NCBI GenBank assembly: GCA_963931495.1
Contig: OZ007020.1
Location: 363,338 to 427,337, forward strand
DNA: 64,000 nt
DNA from: an uncultured Alphaproteobacteria bacterium
GTDB taxonomy: Bacteria > Pseudomonadota > Alphaproteobacteria > Rs-D84
Direction: 5' to 3'
Shown here: positions 28,923 through 56,066 of the stretch, one piece after another
How the letters are laid out: each line of letters starts with the position of its first letter
Numbering within the stretch: position 1 is the first letter of the stretch
The notes under the pieces: generated by a model
What the model saw: only the letters and a program-made list of their open reading frames with translations
Databases searched by the model: none
Told to the model about the DNA's origin: nothing
Position numbers and translations under genes: made by a program

Positions 28923-29685
28923 ATGAAAAAAATAATTTTAACATCTTTGTTGGCTGTTTTTGCGGCAACAAGTGCAAACGCGGCAATTAATGATAATCCT
29001 ATGTATCGTCCGGACCAGGGCCGCTTTTACAGTGTTACAGAATTGAATTCGCATACCGAAGATATTGACAGTTGGAAAGTTACAGAAAAATTTGGTTATG
29101 GCATAACAGACCAAGCGTCTATTTACATTAATACTGATTTTATATGAATATAATTCTTTTGACCACTATGGTTGGGGCAATTTTGAAATCGGTGCTGATT
29201 ATCGTTTGTTGAATGATATGAATTGGAAAGTTGATGCGTATGGTTCGTATGCGTTGGCGCCAGTATGGGGGGCAGAATTCTTGGATTCAAATGCAACAAC
29301 ATATACATGGGGGGTCGGTGTTCGTGCCGGATATGTAACGGATTTGTGGACGGTTGCTGGACATGTTGAATTTAATTATTTGAACAGTGAATCGTTCAAT
29401 TGGGGCAACGATTTTGGAAATAATCATCTGTTGATTGCCGGGTTGGATGGATTTGTTTCGCTGACATCAGATTGGGCATTAATGCTGGGGGCGGAATACA
29501 CCGGCGTTATGGATGACAGCGCAGAAAATGCCGGCAGATGGGACGGCAAAATTGGCGTAAATTATAACTTTAACCAAGACATGTTTGCTGGTGCGTACGT
29601 GTCAGCGATGATGGGTCATGGTTCTGGTGATTGGAAAATCGCCGATGGCATCGGATTTGGTGTAAAATTTGGTGCACAATTTTAA
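28923..29685 (+). pseudogene. Outer-membrane beta-barrel protein paralog, interrupted by a frameshift in a T4 tract near 29137-29147
   Basis: ORF 28923..29147 (signal peptide MKKIILTSLLAVFAATSANA) and ORF 29206..29685 (ending ...IGFGVKFGAQF) are contiguous in two frames. Reading ...INTDF(I)YEYNSFDHYGWGNFEIGADY... requires a 1-nt shift at gattttata. Confidence 0.45.
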
Positions 29686-29704: not shown

Positions 29705-29735
29705 CAAAATCCCGCCGTGTGGCGGGATTTTATAT
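29705..29735 (+). terminator. Rho-independent terminator
   Basis: aaaatcccgccgtgtggcgggatttta. Confidence 0.6.
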
Positions 29736-29962
29736 TGACTGTAATGGATGATGCGTTACATCAATGAACAAAATTAATTCGTATACAGTTGGATGTTGTT
29801 GGTCTGTGGTGATTTGATAATATCCGGATTCATCTGTATTGAATATGTCGCACATAACAAATATCGGAATTTTTTGTTTATGGCGTACGTGTTCTATTTC
29901 TTGCCCTAATGTCATTGTATCCCCCAAAAAAATGTAATAAAAAACCACCAGAAAAAATCTAA

Positions 29963-30043
29963 GTGGTTGGAGGTTGATTACTATGAAAGATATAGTGCCG
30001 CTTATTCAATATATTCACGACCCTCCAACCAAACAGGTTGGAA
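29963..30043. repeat. Palindromic repeat element A (GGTTGGAGG -N48- CCTCCAACC-AAACA-GGTTGG)
   Basis: Shares CTCCAACC/GGTTGGAG cores with the elements at 31293..31405 and 51975..52080. Confidence 0.5.
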
Positions 30044-30247
30044 TTTCATCCAATGGATGTCTTTCAGGGGTAATCACACCCCGCAACAGCAACCCGCCAT
30101 TGCAGATGCTATTATAAAAATCCGTTTTGTTTATTGCAATTTGTTTTTTGTCATAAATTGTAATAATTTTGTACTGATAAAAATATTGTCATTTTGCCAT
30201 TTTTAATACGTCCCTGATTTTTGGGATTTTCCATCGGTATTTTTAAT

Positions 30248-30278
30248 AAAAAATCCCACCGAATGGTGGGATTTTTTT
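30248..30278 (+). terminator. Rho-independent terminator with no upstream CDS, consistent with a small RNA ending here
   Basis: aaaaatcccaccgaatggtgggattttttt. Confidence 0.55.
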
Positions 30279-30330
30279 GCGGACTTTGTTCTTGTTGTTT
30301 ATGTTTGCACAGACGTGTAATTATTGTGGT

Positions 30331-31095
30331 ATGGCGCATGGTATAAAATTATTTTTAATATTTACGGTATGCTATATTGCTGGATACTCATGCGCACATG
30401 CCGCGCGATTGGATGTCAGTCGTATCAGTCAATCTGGTGAATTTTCTGCATCGTTTGGTGCGGCGTTCAAGACTGGTGCAAATCGTGATAATACGACCCA
30501 AACAGATTTTTTATCTGGACGTATACATGAATTATCACTGGATTTGGATTATACTTTTTTAGATGATTGGACGATTTCATTCAGCACGGACAATGATTAT
30601 TCTGATTCACAGATTGGTGTAAAGTGGAAGCTGATAAAATTTCATGAACTGAAAATTGATTTTATGGCGGACTATGGCATTGCATGGACAAAAAACGCCA
30701 AAACAGATGTACGTTTGGGGAATAATAATTTTGATTTTGGAATGCGTGTTCATGGTATTGCGTTGCAGGATTTTCAATGGGCAGTGAAAATCATGGGCCA
30801 GTTTGTATTTGCAGAACCAAAAAACTTTTGGAATATAAATCTGACCGCAGAAGCGATGTATTATTTCCATCCAGATATTGCCGCCAAGTTTGAATTTGAA
30901 TATGACTTTAATCAGATTAGTGCACCAATAACACAATATGATCGCACAATTCATTTTGGAATAATATATAATATGTCTAATATTGCGTCAGTGCATCCTT
31001 ATGTAAAATATCACTTTAAGACCGATACAGCAGACAATAATTATATTCCCGATAATTTTTGGAAAATTGGGGCAGAGTTTTCAGTAGAATTTTAA
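30331..31095 (+). CDS. Small outer-membrane beta-barrel protein paralog
   Basis: Signal peptide MAHGIKLFLIFTVCYIAGYSCAHA. Amphipathic beta-strands. C-terminal ...IGAEFSVEF. Alternative start at 30301. Confidence 0.5.
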   Translation: MAHGIKLFLIFTVCYIAGYSCAHAARLDVSRISQSGEFSASFGAAFKTGANRDNTTQTDFLSGRIHELSLDLDYTFLDDWTISFSTDNDYSDSQIGVKWKLIKFHELKIDFMADYGIAWTKNAKTDVRLGNNNFDFGMRVHGIALQDFQWAVKIMGQFVFAEPKNFWNINLTAEAMYYFHPDIAAKFEFEYDFNQISAPITQYDRTIHFGIIYNMSNIASVHPYVKYHFKTDTADNNYIPDNFWKIGAEFSVEF

Positions 31096-31292
31096 GCATC
31101 TATGATGGTGGTTTGACGCATAATGCATAACAATTAATTTTTGGATTGTGTTGTACTTGCCGGTAAAGGTTTATGATAAAAATTTGCTTGGATTTTTATA
31201 CAAATATAAATTATAATATTTTTTGTGGCGTTGGATTAACGCCATGGGGTGTCAAGACCCGAAATGCGGCGTTGCGGTATGCGACGATAAAG

Positions 31293-31405
31293 CTCCAACC
31301 ATTGGTTGGAGGGCTGTGAATAATGCGTTTACGCAAAATAAGCACACTATACCGTATTGTAGTCTTGAACCTCCAACCACTTGAAAATTCTTTCAGTGGT
31401 TTTTT
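31293..31405 (+). repeat. Palindromic repeat element B. CTCCAACC-ATT-GGTTGGAGGG, then a ~57-nt spacer, then CCTCCAACCAC and an intrinsic-terminator hairpin plus T-run. Candidate small RNA.
   Basis: gctccaaccattggttggaggg...cctccaaccacttgaaaattctttcagtggttttttg. Confidence 0.5.
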
Positions 31406-31420
31406 GTTTGGGGGTGGATT

Positions 31421-31987
31421 ATGAGAAAGCTTATATTTATTATCGTTGTCTGCATGCTGTACCACAACGCGTATGGTGCGGTAGGAGAACCATGCAGCGA
31501 GCCGTGTTTAGAAGGAACAATCCCAATACCATATAGTTGGGATTGTGGTGTGTGTCCTGCTAATACATATATGGATGAGGTGTTATGTCCCGAACCCAGA
31601 TTATTTGAATGTAAGCCATGTCCCGCGGGTACAATAACAATTGGCGATACAGCCGCCGATCATGACAGTATTGATGACTGTGTCGCTGCGCCTGTATTGT
31701 GTGCGTCCGGATATTATTTGCCTGCCGGTTCTGCAACATGTACGCAATGCCCAAAAAATTCATATTGCCCGGGCGGGGAATATACATCATCTGGTCAAGA
31801 TAGTGGTATTATCGCATGTCCAAATGATACCAAATCACCGATTGGTTCTGACAGTGCGGATGATTGTGGTCGTATATTACATATTGGTGAATATGTTTTA
31901 TACTTACGCACTGCAAAATTAACCAGTCCAGCATTGCATGTAAAAATAGGTGATGTGATATATTATGGGGATGCGTTTCCCGCATAG
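31421..31987 (+). CDS. Secreted cysteine-rich protein with ephrin-receptor/TNFR-like repeats (188 aa)
   Basis: Signal peptide MRKLIFIIVVCMLYHNAYG. Motifs CPANTYMDEVLCPEPRLFECKPCPAGT and CTQCPKNSYCPGGEY. Confidence 0.5.
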   Translation: MRKLIFIIVVCMLYHNAYGAVGEPCSEPCLEGTIPIPYSWDCGVCPANTYMDEVLCPEPRLFECKPCPAGTITIGDTAADHDSIDDCVAAPVLCASGYYLPAGSATCTQCPKNSYCPGGEYTSSGQDSGIIACPNDTKSPIGSDSADDCGRILHIGEYVLYLRTAKLTSPALHVKIGDVIYYGDAFPA

Positions 31988-51885: not shown

Positions 51886-51974
51886 CGCGGTATATGATTT
51901 GATACGATGCAAGGTGTTCTGGCATTAGGATTTAAGAACCAATTGAGTGCGTATGGATTTTTATGCTAAAAAAT

Positions 51975-52080
51975 TCCAACCGATTCGGTTGGAGTATGGC
52001 GAATATGTTGAATAAACCATGCAATTCACTTCAATTGTTATTAAACTGCAACCACCTGTTTTGGGTGGTGTTTGTTTTTT
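51975..52080 (+). repeat. Palindromic repeat element C. TCCAACC-GATTC-GGTTGGAG, then a ~50-nt spacer, then CAACCACC-hairpin and a T-run. Candidate small RNA, homologous to element B.
   Basis: attccaaccgattcggttggag...ctgcaaccacctgttttgggtggtgtttgttttttg. Confidence 0.5.
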
Positions 52081-52207: not shown

Positions 52208-53065
52208 TTATCGGGTGCGCTGTAAAACAACAACTGATTCACTGTTTGGGTTTTTGCGGTCTTGGTCCACACGCATTATTTTTGCCCAATTTTGAAATCT
52301 GGATGCCAAATATTGGTACACTTTGTCCTGTTTTTGTATCCCCATGCGACCAGCCTGGGCGATAATGTACCCATTTGGACGCACGTATGGACGCAAATTC
52401 AGTAATATATCGTGCATTTGGGCACTGCGTAAATATTCAAATATATTTGACAGATTTATCACGTCGTATTCGCGCGTCAGATGTGTGTGCAGTGATTCAA
52501 TGTCGGTCCATATGAAATTGAACGGTTGTGATATTTTTTTACGCATTCCATCATATTCTGATTCTGTGGGAATGTTTTCTTGGTAATATATTGGTTCTAT
52601 GCCTTGGCTGAATATCGCGCATTTTGGCATGCTTTGAACAAATTGACGGCTGGCATCTGGTACAGATGGTAATATCTGGGCCAGGCCGGCGTCGTATGTG
52701 CAATTGTGCATATCGTTCAACAGGGTTATATAATCTGGACGTGATAATTTATGCAAGGCTGTGGATTTTATATCCATCGCCACTTTGGCACAAAAAGATA
52801 CATCAAATGTATCAATATGCTTTGCACCACGCAGTGCGTAAAACATTGGTTGGTCCCCACTGGCCGCGACCGTCAATACATTATCGCATATCCCAGATGT
52901 TAATCCAGAAATCCAACGAATGTTTTCGTTCGTTAAAACGTATGACGGCGAATATTTGGCAAACATAGGATTGCTTACATTACTGTATATGCCAACGCCG
53001 TCACCGTGCCGGATATAGCACTGTTTCGCATCGTAAATATTAAAAGTTCGTTCTGGTCGTTTCAT
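52208..53065 (-). CDS. Putative class I SAM-dependent methyltransferase-like protein
   Basis: Rossmann-like VLTVAASGDQPMFYALRGAKHIDTFDVS and DVINLSNIFEYL motifs. Confidence 0.35.
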   Translation of the reverse strand: MKRPERTFNIYDAKQCYIRHGDGVGIYSNVSNPMFAKYSPSYVLTNENIRWISGLTSGICDNVLTVAASGDQPMFYALRGAKHIDTFDVSFCAKVAMDIKSTALHKLSRPDYITLLNDMHNCTYDAGLAQILPSVPDASRQFVQSMPKCAIFSQGIEPIYYQENIPTESEYDGMRKKISQPFNFIWTDIESLHTHLTREYDVINLSNIFEYLRSAQMHDILLNLRPYVRPNGYIIAQAGRMGIQKQDKVYQYLASRFQNWAKIMRVDQDRKNPNSESVVVLQRTR

Positions 53066-53189: not shown

Positions 53190-56066
53190 ATGAAAAAATT
53201 ACTGACCAGTATGATAATTTGCCTGGGCTTTATTGCCGGTGCGGATGCGGCGGTACGCAGCCAGTCGGCAACAACGGTTAATCGTGGGGCGGCGGCAACA
53301 AATACGTCAACGCGTGCAACGGCAACGGCGCGTGCGGCAACCACGGCGCGCAGTGCAACGCAACCACGGGCCACAACGGCGCGCGCCGCCACAACGGGGC
53401 GCACCACGGTCAGTCGTACCAGCGCCGCAACATCATCAACACCAACAGTCGCGGCGCGTGCCGCCACAACACAAAAAGTGTTGAATGCCGGTACCAGTGT
53501 CCAGGCGGCAAATGAAAATATTGTTGTCAGTGCAGATTGTCGCCAAAAGTATTATGGATGCATGGATTCGTTCTGTATGCTGGATAATGACAGTGGTGGG
53601 CGCTGTATTTGCAGTGACAGAAATGCTGAACTGGATGCCATTTTAGACAAAATTCAACAACTGGACCAGCAAAGTTATCAAATGGCAACGTACGGTGTTG
53701 AACGTATAGAAATGGGGGCTGATGCGGATGCGGCAATCGCAAATGCAAATGCTGTGGCACAGTCTATTATTGATTCTGTCCCAGAAGAAGAACCAGCCAA
53801 GCGAGAGTTTAAGTTGGATTTATCATTATGGGATACGTCCAGTTTATATTCAGATAATGTATTTGATGAAACTGTTATGGTTGACCCGATTGAAGGTAAA
53901 GAAGGTGACGCGTTGTACCAGGCATCACACGCCATTTGTGCACAACAAATACCAGAATGTGCCGCGGATATGAATATGCTGCAATTAATGTATGCACAAC
54001 AAATTCGTTCAGATTGCAGCGCGTATGAAAACAGCCTGAAACAGCAACAAAACGCCAGTGCACAAAAATTGGCCGCCGCAGAACAGGCGTTGCGCAGCGC
54101 GGCACTGGAACAATATCGCAGCGCAAACAAGTATGATCTGGGGCAATGTACGGTTGAATTCAAAAATTGTATGATAACAACCGGTGGGTGTGGCGATGAC
54201 TTTGCCGGCTGTGCAACAGTTGCGGCGTTTGATGCAACAAATACACGCGGTCGGGCCAGTGATGCAGAAAAATATTCAATCAAAGGCGCTGTTACAGAAA
54301 TAGAAATTAATGCGTCAACGTACGATATTTTGTTGTCTAAAAAGCCGTTGTGCGAAAGCGTGACTCAGCAATGTGTTAATGTTGCCGATCAAGTTTGGGA
54401 TACTTTTTTGCGTGATATTGCGCCCCAGGTAAAGTCAGCGGAATTAATTGCCGAAGATAATGCGCGCCAAAATTGCATTGGTAACATATCGTCATGTTTT
54501 CAACAGGCGTGTCGTGATACCATGGATCCAAATGATCCAGATGGTTCGTATGATATGTGTCTGACACGGCCAGAAACAATGCTGGACTTATGTACAGTGC
54601 CGTTGAATGCATGTGAAATTTCTACGACGTCGGCGGCCGAAGCAGAGGCGTCGCCAATATGGGAATTTGTGGTTGCGCGTTTGCAATCAATGCGTGTGAA
54701 TTCGTGTACAACCCAGGTTAAAGAATGTCTGCAATCCGAAGACAGATGTGGTTCGGATTATACGCAGTGCATCGGTATGGATTCGTATACGATTATTCGG
54801 ATGTGTCCACAAGAATTGCTGATTGGATGCCAAGGATATGATGGTGGCACCACCAGGGGGGTAAGTTCAGACAGCCAGGATGCGTTCTATTCCAGTTTGG
54901 AAAATATGATTCAAGGTATATTCTTGAATATTGATAACAACATGTTGGCCGAATGCCAGAATGCCGCGAACGAAGCAATGATAAGTGTTTGTGGGGATAC
55001 GGAAAATTGTGACAGTTTGGCGGTTGATGATTCTGTGGGGGCAAATACGTTGGAATACAAGATATGCCAAATAAAATCGGGATCTGGTACAGATATTGAT
55101 TATAACAATTGTGTGACTGATTTGTCCCAGATATCTGATGCGGCGTTGGGACGTGGCGGCGGCAAGGCAGCAAATTATGCAATTGTAATTGATGGTGAAA
55201 TTGATTGGGGCGAAATATCGTTTGATGACGAAGGACGCGTTGTGTTGGGCGATGTTCCAGATACCACAACCACATCAGACACGACCGCCACAGCAAATGC
55301 AAACGCCAGTGTGGCAACTGTTGCAAACGAACCGTTGACAGCGGCGACAACATTGCAACCGGTTATCGCATTAAACAGAACGCCGGTGGTTACAACAACG
55401 GCCCCAGAATTGGCGGCGTCGGAACAAGAACTGAATGCAGAATTGGTGTTGTTACAGAATAATATTAATAATGCGATTAACACAATTGAATCAAATGCCC
55501 AGGTTAATTTCTGTATGACGGGGCGCGAAGTTCAAGGTATCCGCAATGTCGTTGACAGAACGCAAGAAGGGGGCCGGTTCCCAAGTCTGACCAAGCAAAT
55601 GCGTATGCTGATTGCGTCGTCGGCAATCAAGGCGGCAATGGATAACTATTATGAAAGATATGAAGAACTGACGCAAAGAAAGATGCAAGACTATGTCACG
55701 ATGAATGAACGTATTGCGGAAATAAATAATCAAAATACGTTGGATGCACGTCGTGAAGCAGCGCGTATCGCGTGTGTTGAATTGGCCGAAAGTGATGGCG
55801 CATCTGGTGATGATACAGAAAATTCAACCCAGCAAAGCACAACGGTTGCATCATTAAACGGCCAACCGGGTGGACCGTTGGCGGGTGCCAGAGAGACCGC
55901 AAACGATTGGAATTATAAAGAAACAATAACATCAACGTTTGATTGGGAAACATTGGCCTGTACCAGATGCACACGTAAACAAAATTGTTTAGATCCCAAG
56001 GGTGGCAGAAGGTTCTGTAAAGAATGGGAAGATCCAGTTGAAACATGCACAACGGTTGAATTCTGA
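53190..56066 (+). CDS. Large secreted cysteine-rich protein, tandem paralog 1 (958 aa)
   Basis: Signal peptide MKKLLTSMIICLGFIAGADA. Arg/Ala/Thr low-complexity region (ARAATTARSATQPRATTARAATTGRTT...). Multiple Cys-rich modules (CRQKYYGCMDSFCMLDNDSGGRCICSD...). C-terminus ...CKEWEDPVETCTTVEF. Confidence 0.55.
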   Translation: MKKLLTSMIICLGFIAGADAAVRSQSATTVNRGAAATNTSTRATATARAATTARSATQPRATTARAATTGRTTVSRTSAATSSTPTVAARAATTQKVLNAGTSVQAANENIVVSADCRQKYYGCMDSFCMLDNDSGGRCICSDRNAELDAILDKIQQLDQQSYQMATYGVERIEMGADADAAIANANAVAQSIIDSVPEEEPAKREFKLDLSLWDTSSLYSDNVFDETVMVDPIEGKEGDALYQASHAICAQQIPECAADMNMLQLMYAQQIRSDCSAYENSLKQQQNASAQKLAAAEQALRSAALEQYRSANKYDLGQCTVEFKNCMITTGGCGDDFAGCATVAAFDATNTRGRASDAEKYSIKGAVTEIEINASTYDILLSKKPLCESVTQQCVNVADQVWDTFLRDIAPQVKSAELIAEDNARQNCIGNISSCFQQACRDTMDPNDPDGSYDMCLTRPETMLDLCTVPLNACEISTTSAAEAEASPIWEFVVARLQSMRVNSCTTQVKECLQSEDRCGSDYTQCIGMDSYTIIRMCPQELLIGCQGYDGGTTRGVSSDSQDAFYSSLENMIQGIFLNIDNNMLAECQNAANEAMISVCGDTENCDSLAVDDSVGANTLEYKICQIKSGSGTDIDYNNCVTDLSQISDAALGRGGGKAANYAIVIDGEIDWGEISFDDEGRVVLGDVPDTTTTSDTTATANANASVATVANEPLTAATTLQPVIALNRTPVVTTTAPELAASEQELNAELVLLQNNINNAINTIESNAQVNFCMTGREVQGIRNVVDRTQEGGRFPSLTKQMRMLIASSAIKAAMDNYYERYEELTQRKMQDYVTMNERIAEINNQNTLDARREAARIACVELAESDGASGDDTENSTQQSTTVASLNGQPGGPLAGARETANDWNYKETITSTFDWETLACTRCTRKQNCLDPKGGRRFCKEWEDPVETCTTVEF
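54177..54712 (+). repeat. 536-bp tract with a single mismatch to 57002..57537 in the downstream paralog
   Basis: Seen in sequence. The identical antisense ORFs 54376..54612 and 57201..57437 in the ORF track confirm it. Confidence 0.8.

Follow-up and report, generated by a model that had tools for sequence, protein, structure and literature searches.

A family of pseudoknotted, terminator-ended leader RNAs in the Rs-D84/Enterousia lineage of uncultured Alphaproteobacteria

Three intergenic sites in a 64,000-nt stretch of DNA from an uncultured Alphaproteobacteria bacterium (hereafter the window; G+C content 43%, from a genome consisting of a 958,617-bp contig) carry the same short palindromic cores, which raises the question of what these sites are and what they might do. 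A sequence-only reading had pointed out the three sites and regarded them as candidate small RNAs or REP/MITE-type repeats. The recurrence is real: TCCAACC-N3-5-GGTTGGA is present at exactly three sites in the window (30024-30042, 31294-31310, and 51975-51993, in what we call copies A, B, and C), with 0 sites expected from 100 dinucleotide-preserving shuffles of the window, and CCTCCAACC occurs four times against 0.31 expected, all four occurrences lying inside sites A and B. The strict 8-bp form in which the core had been described (CTCCAACC..GGTTGGAG) is confined to copy B (31293-31311), whereas the 7-bp core is common to all three copies, the arms of copies A and C being 7 bp long. The layout proposed for copies B and C, i.e., a hairpin, a spacer, a CAACCAC-containing hairpin, and a T-run, was as claimed.

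Organization of the three copies in the window

Reading and alignment place copy A on the minus strand as the reverse complement of copies B and C, and along this strand it displays a hairpin, the conserved GUGAAUAUAUUGAAUAAG, a second hairpin, CCUCCAACC, and a terminator. Only two of the sites had been thought to end in intrinsic terminators, but all three copies do so; that of copy A lies at ~29968->29937, and the orphan terminator at 30248-30278 to which this copy had been linked is on the wrong side, upstream of its promoter. The suggestion of a ~110-nt sRNA with a 3' terminator was correct with regard to a terminator-ended structured RNA, which has its own promoter, but the RNA is ~170-190 nt long to the terminator and mostly a 5' leader, only the 3' half of which had been seen: the hairpin described earlier is preceded on its 5' side by the promoter and a conserved structured stretch of ~70 nt that comprises hairpins Pa, Pc, and Pb. 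The full RNAs extend approximately over 30103->29937 (A), 31225-31409 (B), and 51906-52080 (C).

Each unit is composed of a sigma-70-type promoter, the structured RNA, an intrinsic terminator, and usually a Shine-Dalgarno sequence (SD) and a start codon. The structured part covers ~150 nt and contains six helices and two pseudoknots. Its 5' domain comprises, in this order, the variable hairpin Pa, the conserved GGGGYGU..ACCC hairpin Pc, a short variable strand, the variable hairpin Pb, and an A-rich linker; in the core, P2 closes a nearly invariant loop (GAAUAUAUUGAAUAA) and is followed by P3, and some copies, window B among them, have an extra hairpin inserted in the P2 loop. Pseudoknot PK1 forms between the P3 loop and the strand that follows Pc; in PK2, the loop of Pc pairs with the linker that directly precedes CCUCCAACC. 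Three segments are central to the argument below: segment 2 (GGUUGGAGG) is complementary both to the 5' segment 1 (CUCCAACC), with which it forms helix P1, and to the 3' segment 3 (CCUCCAACC), with which it forms helix H. The features of the three copies are as follows.

Copy A, 30111..30139, minus strand: promoter with a TTGCAA -35 box (30139-30134), a 17-nt spacer, and a TATAAT -10 box (30116-30111); 10/12 match in the promoter scan
Copy A, 29962..30103, minus strand: RNA body found by covariance model R1 (112.3 bits, full 150 positions)
Copy A, minus strand: Pa 30103-30083, Pc 30082-30067, PK1 5' strand UGAAAGA 30066-30060, Pb 30059-30047
Copy A, minus strand: segment 1 UCCAACC 30042-30036, segment 2 GGUUGGAGG 30030-30022, segment 3 CCUCCAACC 29973-29965
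Copy A, minus strand: P2 with conserved loop 30021-29997, P3 29996-29980
Copy A, minus strand: PK1 3' strand UCUUUCA 29990-29984, PK2 3' strand UAAUCA 29980-29975
Copy A, 29937..29968, minus strand: intrinsic terminator, AACCACU..(C)UGGUGGUU plus U-run, 5' arm overlapping segment 3 (fold of the minus strand)
Copy A, 29730..29925, minus strand: downstream gene, SD GGGGGA 29925-29920, ATG 29915, encoding a 61-aa small XRE-like protein (MTLGQEIEHVR..)
Copy B, 31212..31217, plus strand: -10 box TATAAT, aligned with the -10 box of the family
Copy B, 31225..31381, plus strand: RNA body found by the covariance model (102.9 bits)
Copy B, plus strand: Pa 31225-31245, Pc 31246-31260, Pb 31270-31286
Copy B, plus strand: PK1 5' strand AUGCGG 31264-31269 and 3' strand CCGUAU 31352-31357 (register read by eye)
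Copy B, plus strand: PK2 strand UCAAGA 31252-31257 (in Pc) and 3' strand UCUUGA 31363-31368
Copy B, plus strand: segment 1 CUCCAACC 31293-31300, segment 2 GGUUGGAGG 31304-31312, segment 3 CCUCCAACC 31370-31378
Copy B, plus strand: P2 with inserted hairpin P2a 31325-31334, P3 31347-31362
Copy B, 31375..31409, plus strand: intrinsic terminator, AACCACUUGAAA..UUUCAGUGGUU plus U-run, overlapping segment 3
Copy B, 31410..31987, plus strand: downstream gene, SD GGGGGUGG 31410-31417, ATG 31421, encoding a 188-aa signal-peptide Cys-rich protein
Copy C, 51893..51898, plus strand: -10-like box TATGAT, with no TTG -35 box and the rplQ terminator in that position
Copy C, 51906..52056, plus strand: RNA body found by the covariance model (109.4 bits)
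Copy C, plus strand: segment 1 UCCAACC 51975-51981, segment 2 GGUUGGAGU 51987-51995, segment 3 ACUGCAACC 52045-52053
Copy C, 52050..52080, plus strand: terminator ACCACC-UGUUUU-GGGUGGU plus U-rich run

Copy C is an orphan behind the rplQ terminator with no downstream gene on its strand; a C>G change in its segment 3 breaks one pair of H, and its PK2 is weakened by mismatches. Either it is an RNA gene in its own right, or it is decaying. Opposite to it, a convergent gene (52208-53065, minus strand) encodes a DUF3419/SAM-methyltransferase-like protein.

Several other features of the window were observed. Flanked by an A-run and a U-run, a perfect bidirectional terminator-like hairpin (UCCCACC-GAAU-GGUGGGA) occupies 30248-30278. 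It lies directly upstream of a 272-aa beta-barrel-like ORF (30277-31095, plus strand) and also upstream of the divergent promoter of copy A. This hairpin is not part of the RNA family, yields only sub-threshold generic leader/sRNA matches in Rfam, and might act as an attenuator of its own or insulate the divergent units from each other. The ORFs at 28923-29147, 29206-29685, and 30277-31095 have signal peptides and a C-terminal F (GFGVKFGAQF, GAEFSVEF), a combination typical of outer-membrane beta-barrels, with no Pfam match, and are probably lineage-specific porin-like paralogs. The ORF at 53190-56066 encodes a 958-aa signal-peptide protein of no Pfam family, with an Ala/Thr/Arg-rich low-complexity N-terminal region, many Cys residues, and the end ..TVEF; the long antisense ORFs at this position are artefacts of the low-complexity repeat.

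Family size, distribution, and covariation

The core was searched for as a two-gap pattern with 22 specified bases over one GTDB genome per species, where ~5 matches are expected by chance according to our own estimate. At least 120 loci were found across GTDB species genomes, far beyond the three copies of the window. Among the matches listed, two are chance matches (a coding repeat in Dehalococcoidia and a Nitrospirales site), which obtain covariance model scores of 0 and 26.7 bits, and the remaining ones are from gut, rumen, and termite MAGs labelled Candidatus Enterousia, 'Alphaproteobacteria bacterium', or 'Rickettsiales bacterium'. A covariance model (R1) covering the transcript from Pa to CAACCAC (150 positions, 32 pairs) found just three copies over their full length in the window, at 103-112 bits, and nothing else credible there, and, in the fetched loci, ~148 copies from 85 species-level MAGs of the Rs-D84/Enterousia lineage, which is a lower bound. 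Enterousia is a member of the uncultured order Rs-D84, with genomes under ~1 Mb (PMC12306168).

In some genomes, complete promoter-RNA-terminator units are arranged in tandem with a period of ~205-246 nt and no ORF between units; a small XRE-like gene usually follows the last unit (arrays in loci L083, L058, L106, and L062). Arrays overall contain 3-6 units, for example:

L083:3958-5063: tandem array of 5-6 copies
L106:7039-7912: tandem array of 4 copies
L062:5587-6151: tandem array of 3 copies
L041:2359-3022: tandem array

When the whole window was scanned with Rfam 15 at gathering thresholds, only one tRNA was reported and no family was assigned to the element, and a permissive scan (E<=10) of copies A and B gave no meaningful match on the elements. 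A literature search returned no paper tying Rs-D84/Enterousia to a riboswitch or ncRNA. These sequences constitute a real RNA family that is undescribed as far as literature and Rfam searches reach.

The proposed structure is very strongly supported by covariation. Among 119 distinct sequences, 93.4% of the paired positions are standard pairs, compared with 74.3% in column shuffles and 40-53% when partners were slid by 1-3 columns; 30 of the 32 pairs have changes on both sides, double-change cells number 745 versus 242 expected, and none of 500 column shuffles reached the observed pairing or covariation. P2 was tested apart from the column statistics since it aligns poorly: its flanking strands form 4.8 bp within the same copy versus 2.8 bp between copies (p=3e-26), with 42 distinct strand sequences. 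The two pseudoknots behave in the same manner. Complementarity of the PK1 strands is 8.3 nt for self versus 6.2 nt for non-self combinations (p=8e-32; e.g., UUAUGCUCGG/CCGAGCAUAA, or UGAAAGA/UCUUUCA in window A), and that of PK2 is 6.3 versus 3.7 nt (p=1.5e-66), with 57 distinct duplexes (UGAUUA/UAAUCA in window A and UCAAGA/UCUUGA in window B) and at least 6 contiguous pairs in 112/117 copies. Promoters are equally a property of the family, as a -10 box (TAnnnT, 4-10 nt before the RNA start) was found in 113/120 copies versus 35% in shuffles, and a -35 box (TTG, 16-18 nt upstream of the -10 box) in 92/120 copies versus 3.4%.

Additional contacts may be considered. An A-rich linker (consensus AAAAAA) just 5' of segment 1 is conserved family-wide (30046-30043 in A, 31287-31292 in B, and 51967-51973 in C; the A-runs in A and B are short). 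The linker and the terminator GGUUUUUU are complementary, and the linker could serve as an extra anti-terminator strand, or as a protein or A-minor site. GAAUA is present twice in the invariant P2 loop GAAUAUAUUGAAUAA, and a third tertiary contact is possible between it and the near-invariant Pa loop UGUUC, a pairing that includes one G-U. Both candidate pairings lie outside the reach of covariation because both partners are near-invariant.

Competing segments, terminator overlap, and downstream genes

CCUCC occurs twice in the element, and its two copies compete for one internal GGAGG-containing strand. RNAalifold, run unguided, paired GGUUGGAG(G/U) with the distant (C/A)CUCCAACC rather than with the adjacent 5' CUCCAACC, that is, it returned helix H. 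The ninth pair of H, the only one free of the search pattern, is GC in 87 and UA in 27 copies, and the helix is 99.5% paired. For P1, column statistics are uninformative: it is 96% paired with no excess covariation and nearly invariant. Its covariation support comes from about three divergent copies, which were found by the covariance model but missed by the pattern. In each of them all three segments have changed together, namely segments 1, 2, and 3 are CUCCUGA, GGUCAGGAGG, and CCUCCUGACC in locus L057; CCCCUGUC, GGGCAGGGG, and CCCCUGUCC in L068; and CCAAUC, GAUUGGAGG, and CCUCCAAUC in L084. Therefore, both P1 (1:2) and H (2:3) are selected. P1 varies between 7 and 9 bp across copies (outermost pair CG in 86, UG in 7, unpaired in 23), and this variation would tune the balance of the two states.

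In all copies, including those with unrelated terminator sequences, the 5' arm of the terminator starts within the final 2-4 nt of segment 3, and therefore H competes with the terminator. In pseudoknot-free minimum free energy folds, P1 is formed in 109/113 copies and H in 0/113, so the ground state consists of P1 plus the terminator, with segment 3, the 3' CCUCC copy, unpaired just before the terminator, a placement that would be favourable for a seed. The H state lies ~11 kcal/mol above the P1 state in these pseudoknot-free calculations, a rough figure for qualitative use only that is inflated because nested mis-pairs imitate pseudoknots; switching therefore needs substantial help. Two properties of riboswitches are accordingly present in the RNA itself: a covariation-supported structured domain in the 5' leader, and mutually exclusive structures (segments 1:2 versus 2:3) that act on the terminator.

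The same segment logic (1:2/2:3/3:4) is classical for ribosome-mediated attenuation, in which a short ORF starting from the GUG after GGAGG would be translated and the position of the ribosome would select between 1:2 and 2:3. GGAGG followed by GUG is indeed found in many copies, and by eye the ORFs of copies A and B both end in ..PPTT-stop. However, the ORFs vary between 1 and 416 aa in length, a start is missing from 19/121 copies, segment 3 is read in all three frames (36/34/32), 72/102 ORFs end before segment 3, and the region is constrained by the base-pairing of P2 and P3 and not by codons. Since neither the frame nor the length nor the stop position of the ORF is conserved, leader-peptide attenuation was rejected as extremely improbable. 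A self-cleaving ribozyme, or another catalytic or structural RNA that merely precedes genes, would share the double-pseudoknot architecture, the invariant unpaired nucleotides, and the many copies per genome, but no Rfam ribozyme family is matched and the conserved competition between terminator and antiterminator points to transcription control; we regard this explanation as very unlikely.

The position of the element relative to genes is highly regular. An ORF start is present within 250 nt in 118/124 copies, and copies are co-oriented with the downstream gene. The distance between the terminator U-run and the start codon has a median of 24 nt and is <40 nt in 103/124 copies, with an SD that is usually GGGGG or GGAGG. 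A gap of ~24 nt leaves no space for a separate promoter, and therefore these genes depend on read-through. The gene behind copy B has an ortholog in another species (L116; 61% identical) with the same leader upstream, whose 5' domain has diverged past pairwise alignment.

These observations bear on the REP/MITE interpretation of the sequence-only reading. The elements are multi-copy, intergenic, and built on inverted repeats, as would be anticipated for mobile or repetitive palindromic elements; however, copies are highly diverged with compensatory substitutions instead of being near-identical, they possess their own promoters, their orientation and distance to downstream ORFs are fixed, and the leader is retained at an orthologous locus across species. 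Target-site duplications and terminal inverted repeats were not seen in the flanks, and no copy of the family was found on viral contigs. Such an origin was therefore rejected, its likelihood being negligible.

With respect to gene content, most downstream genes code for secreted proteins specific to this lineage or for HTH regulators, without Pfam assignment. The commonest single type (~18/118), which includes the gene of copy A, is a family of small 60-71-aa proteins (MxxGxEIExIR..YQLIMFI) with weak similarity to HTH_3 and to the N-terminal HTH of PDB 5v5t in profile searches; the copy A gene itself, whose start codon is 20 nt past the terminator, was connected with these weak matches through the family profile. 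A word-index homologue search with the small protein found nothing, and AlphaFold, run on the single sequence, gave a model too poor to use (pLDDT 49). Bona fide XRE HTH proteins (HTH_3, E=2e-11) are also among the downstream genes, and XRE-type or XRE-like genes account for ~24/118. The others include many signal-peptide Cys-rich proteins without a Pfam family, one YadA-anchor protein, and one EcoRI-type methylase. Many leader-controlled secreted Cys-rich proteins share the C-terminal motif KLT(S/T)PAL(N/H)(I/V)K..CY(I)N..YH(I/L), which is carried by the window gene at 31421-31987 (..LTSPALHVKIGDVIYYGD) and by downstream ORFs in L009, L035, L051, L087, L090, L094, and L116; having no Pfam match, this motif may be a lineage-specific sorting or anchoring domain.

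The composition of this gene set leads to the possibility of protein-dependent attenuation, in which an RNA-binding protein, either encoded by the regulon (such as the small HTH-like protein) or a global factor, picks P1 or H. A multi-copy heterogeneous regulon is consistent with this mechanism, the small XRE-like gene, as the most frequent single downstream gene and the one after arrays, suggests an autoregulatory loop, and the conserved A-rich linker and invariant loops might be protein sites. However, the small protein resembles, and only weakly, a DNA-binding XRE HTH. Furthermore, the two pseudoknots and ~35 conserved unpaired positions found here are, in our judgement, closer to ligand-binding aptamers than to typical protein-binding leaders. 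Protein-dependent attenuation is a rather unlikely explanation of the family.

Alternatively, the family might consist of purely trans-acting sRNAs, with the exposed CCUCCAACC (and/or the 5' copy) as an anti-Shine-Dalgarno seed and incidental gene linkage. Each copy has a strong promoter of its own and a terminator, tandem arrays and orphan copies occur without a gene, segment 3 is unpaired beside the terminator in the default fold, and the CCUCC core is complementary to GGAGG/GGGGG SDs of the type present in downstream genes. On the other hand, the start codon is <40 nt from the terminator in most copies, so read-through is needed; helix H and its overlap with the terminator are kept by covariation, for which a seed by itself gives no reason; no further GGUUGGAGG target exists within the 64-kb window; and seed-type sRNAs get by with far simpler folds. 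An exclusively trans-acting role is therefore unlikely, although a dual role, in cis and in trans, may be likely.

Proposed mechanism and comparison with known systems

Taken together, we consider it fairly probable that the family represents riboswitch-like, transcription-attenuating leaders with an effector-driven H state, and that the terminated product doubles as an abundant small RNA. The family, its helices, both pseudoknots, the two alternative pairings, the overlap with the terminator, the promoters, and the linkage to genes are shown by the analyses above; which way the switch regulates, what its effector is, and whether it acts in trans are inferred. Each site would be a self-contained regulatory unit of promoter, structured leader RNA, and terminator. 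By default, P1 would form first, leaving segment 3 free, so that the terminator forms and an RNA of ~170-190 nt is released (OFF). An effector, which might be a small molecule, a second messenger, an ion, or a protein, would stabilize the pseudoknotted core together with H; helix H would then close the P2/P3 junction and take up segment 3, resulting in a weakened terminator and read-through into the gene (ON). Segment 3, which provides the first 2-4 nt of the terminator stem, would hence be the strand shared by the two states. Secreted or surface proteins and small XRE-type regulators would thereby be co-regulated as a set. The terminated RNA would accumulate and may also act in trans alongside its cis role, which is compatible with the arrays and orphan copies. 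Some observations stand against the leader interpretation: downstream genes are heterogeneous and offer no metabolic clue as in most riboswitch regulons, and the lone copy C of the window and the gene-free tandem arrays also fit independent sRNA genes.

A bolder possibility, which we put forward only tentatively, is that the family is a new riboswitch or ribozyme-switch class, i.e., a ~150-nt double-pseudoknot aptamer for a gut/host-derived metabolite or second messenger that, by means of a three-strand terminator switch, jointly turns on much of the surface/secreted proteome and the mini-XRE regulators, and whose terminated form is a trans anti-SD sRNA. If so, RNA would be the main global regulator in the regulator-poor Rs-D84/Enterousia genomes. 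It is rare to find a large pseudoknotted bacterial RNA with strong covariation whose function is unknown, and such RNAs have on repeated occasions revealed new ligands or mechanisms; the present one is unusually well defined from sequence alone (six helices, two pseudoknots, both switch states, ~148 copies, and 85 species). It appears to control, as a shared element, both the surface/secreted proteins and the small regulators of a lineage that is uncultured, has reduced genomes, and inhabits human, ruminant, bird, and termite guts, and it offers a testable handle on the regulation of host- or partner-facing proteins, with one RNA and one terminator read-out. In addition, nature offers here a three-strand (competitor-strand) terminator switch whose P1 length is tunable.

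Several known systems share parts of this organization. Terminator/antiterminator riboswitches, such as the multi-copy c-di-GMP-I class, are aptamer-like 5' leaders that are found in many copies before diverse surface or regulatory genes, with occasional tandems. Like them, the Enterousia-family leaders have a complex conserved fold and mutually exclusive helices that share a strand with an intrinsic terminator. Unlike them, they have in segment 1 a further competing strand with the same sequence as segment 3, which results in a three-way 1:2/2:3/3:4 design, and each unit of a tandem has its own promoter. Attenuators of the trp type and the protein-dependent PyrR/TRAP type are based on an anti-antiterminator, an antiterminator, and a terminator, and this four-segment 1:2/2:3/3:4 logic is likewise present in the new leaders, whereas a conserved leader peptide and a known binding-protein motif are not, and the antiterminator helix encloses a pseudoknotted domain where those attenuators have a simple hairpin. 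In the anti-SD sRNAs CcsR/'cuckoo' alpha-r14 and Listeria LhrC, C-rich motifs lie in hairpin loops of small simple RNAs. The Enterousia-family RNAs are similarly multi-copy, sometimes tandem, equipped with a promoter and a terminator each, and contain CCUCC-type motifs, but these motifs are strands of competing helices within a ~150-nt double-pseudoknot fold physically linked to an ORF downstream, and the Rfam searches gave no match to the CcsR/alpha-r14 or LhrC families.

The Brt RNAs of Bartonella are multi-copy (9 in B. henselae) and ~194-203 nt long; they are extensively structured, and their terminator-like 3' end is directly followed by small XRE-family HTH (Trp) genes. They have been proposed to be both riboswitch-like attenuators and trans-acting sRNAs, are tied to the YadA-type adhesin BadA, and are reported to be Bartonella-specific, with >79% identity among members in conserved regions (Tu et al. 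2016, PMC5387305). The Enterousia-family RNAs are also alphaproteobacterial, ~200-nt, multi-copy structured RNAs with a terminator-like end upstream of XRE-type genes, and one of the leaders precedes a YadA-anchor protein, but most genes behind them encode secreted proteins and not regulators. The published pan-Brt primers and probe, with which the element was compared rather than with full Brt sequences, showed no similarity to it, and CCAACC/GGTTGG is absent from the supplement of the Brt paper (PMC5387305). Homology to Brt thus finds no sequence support in the published primers and probe, and the resemblance is one of organization rather than of demonstrated homology. Even so, Brt/Trp is the nearest analogue of the Enterousia-family leaders, which provide an independent parallel to this poorly understood Bartonella system.
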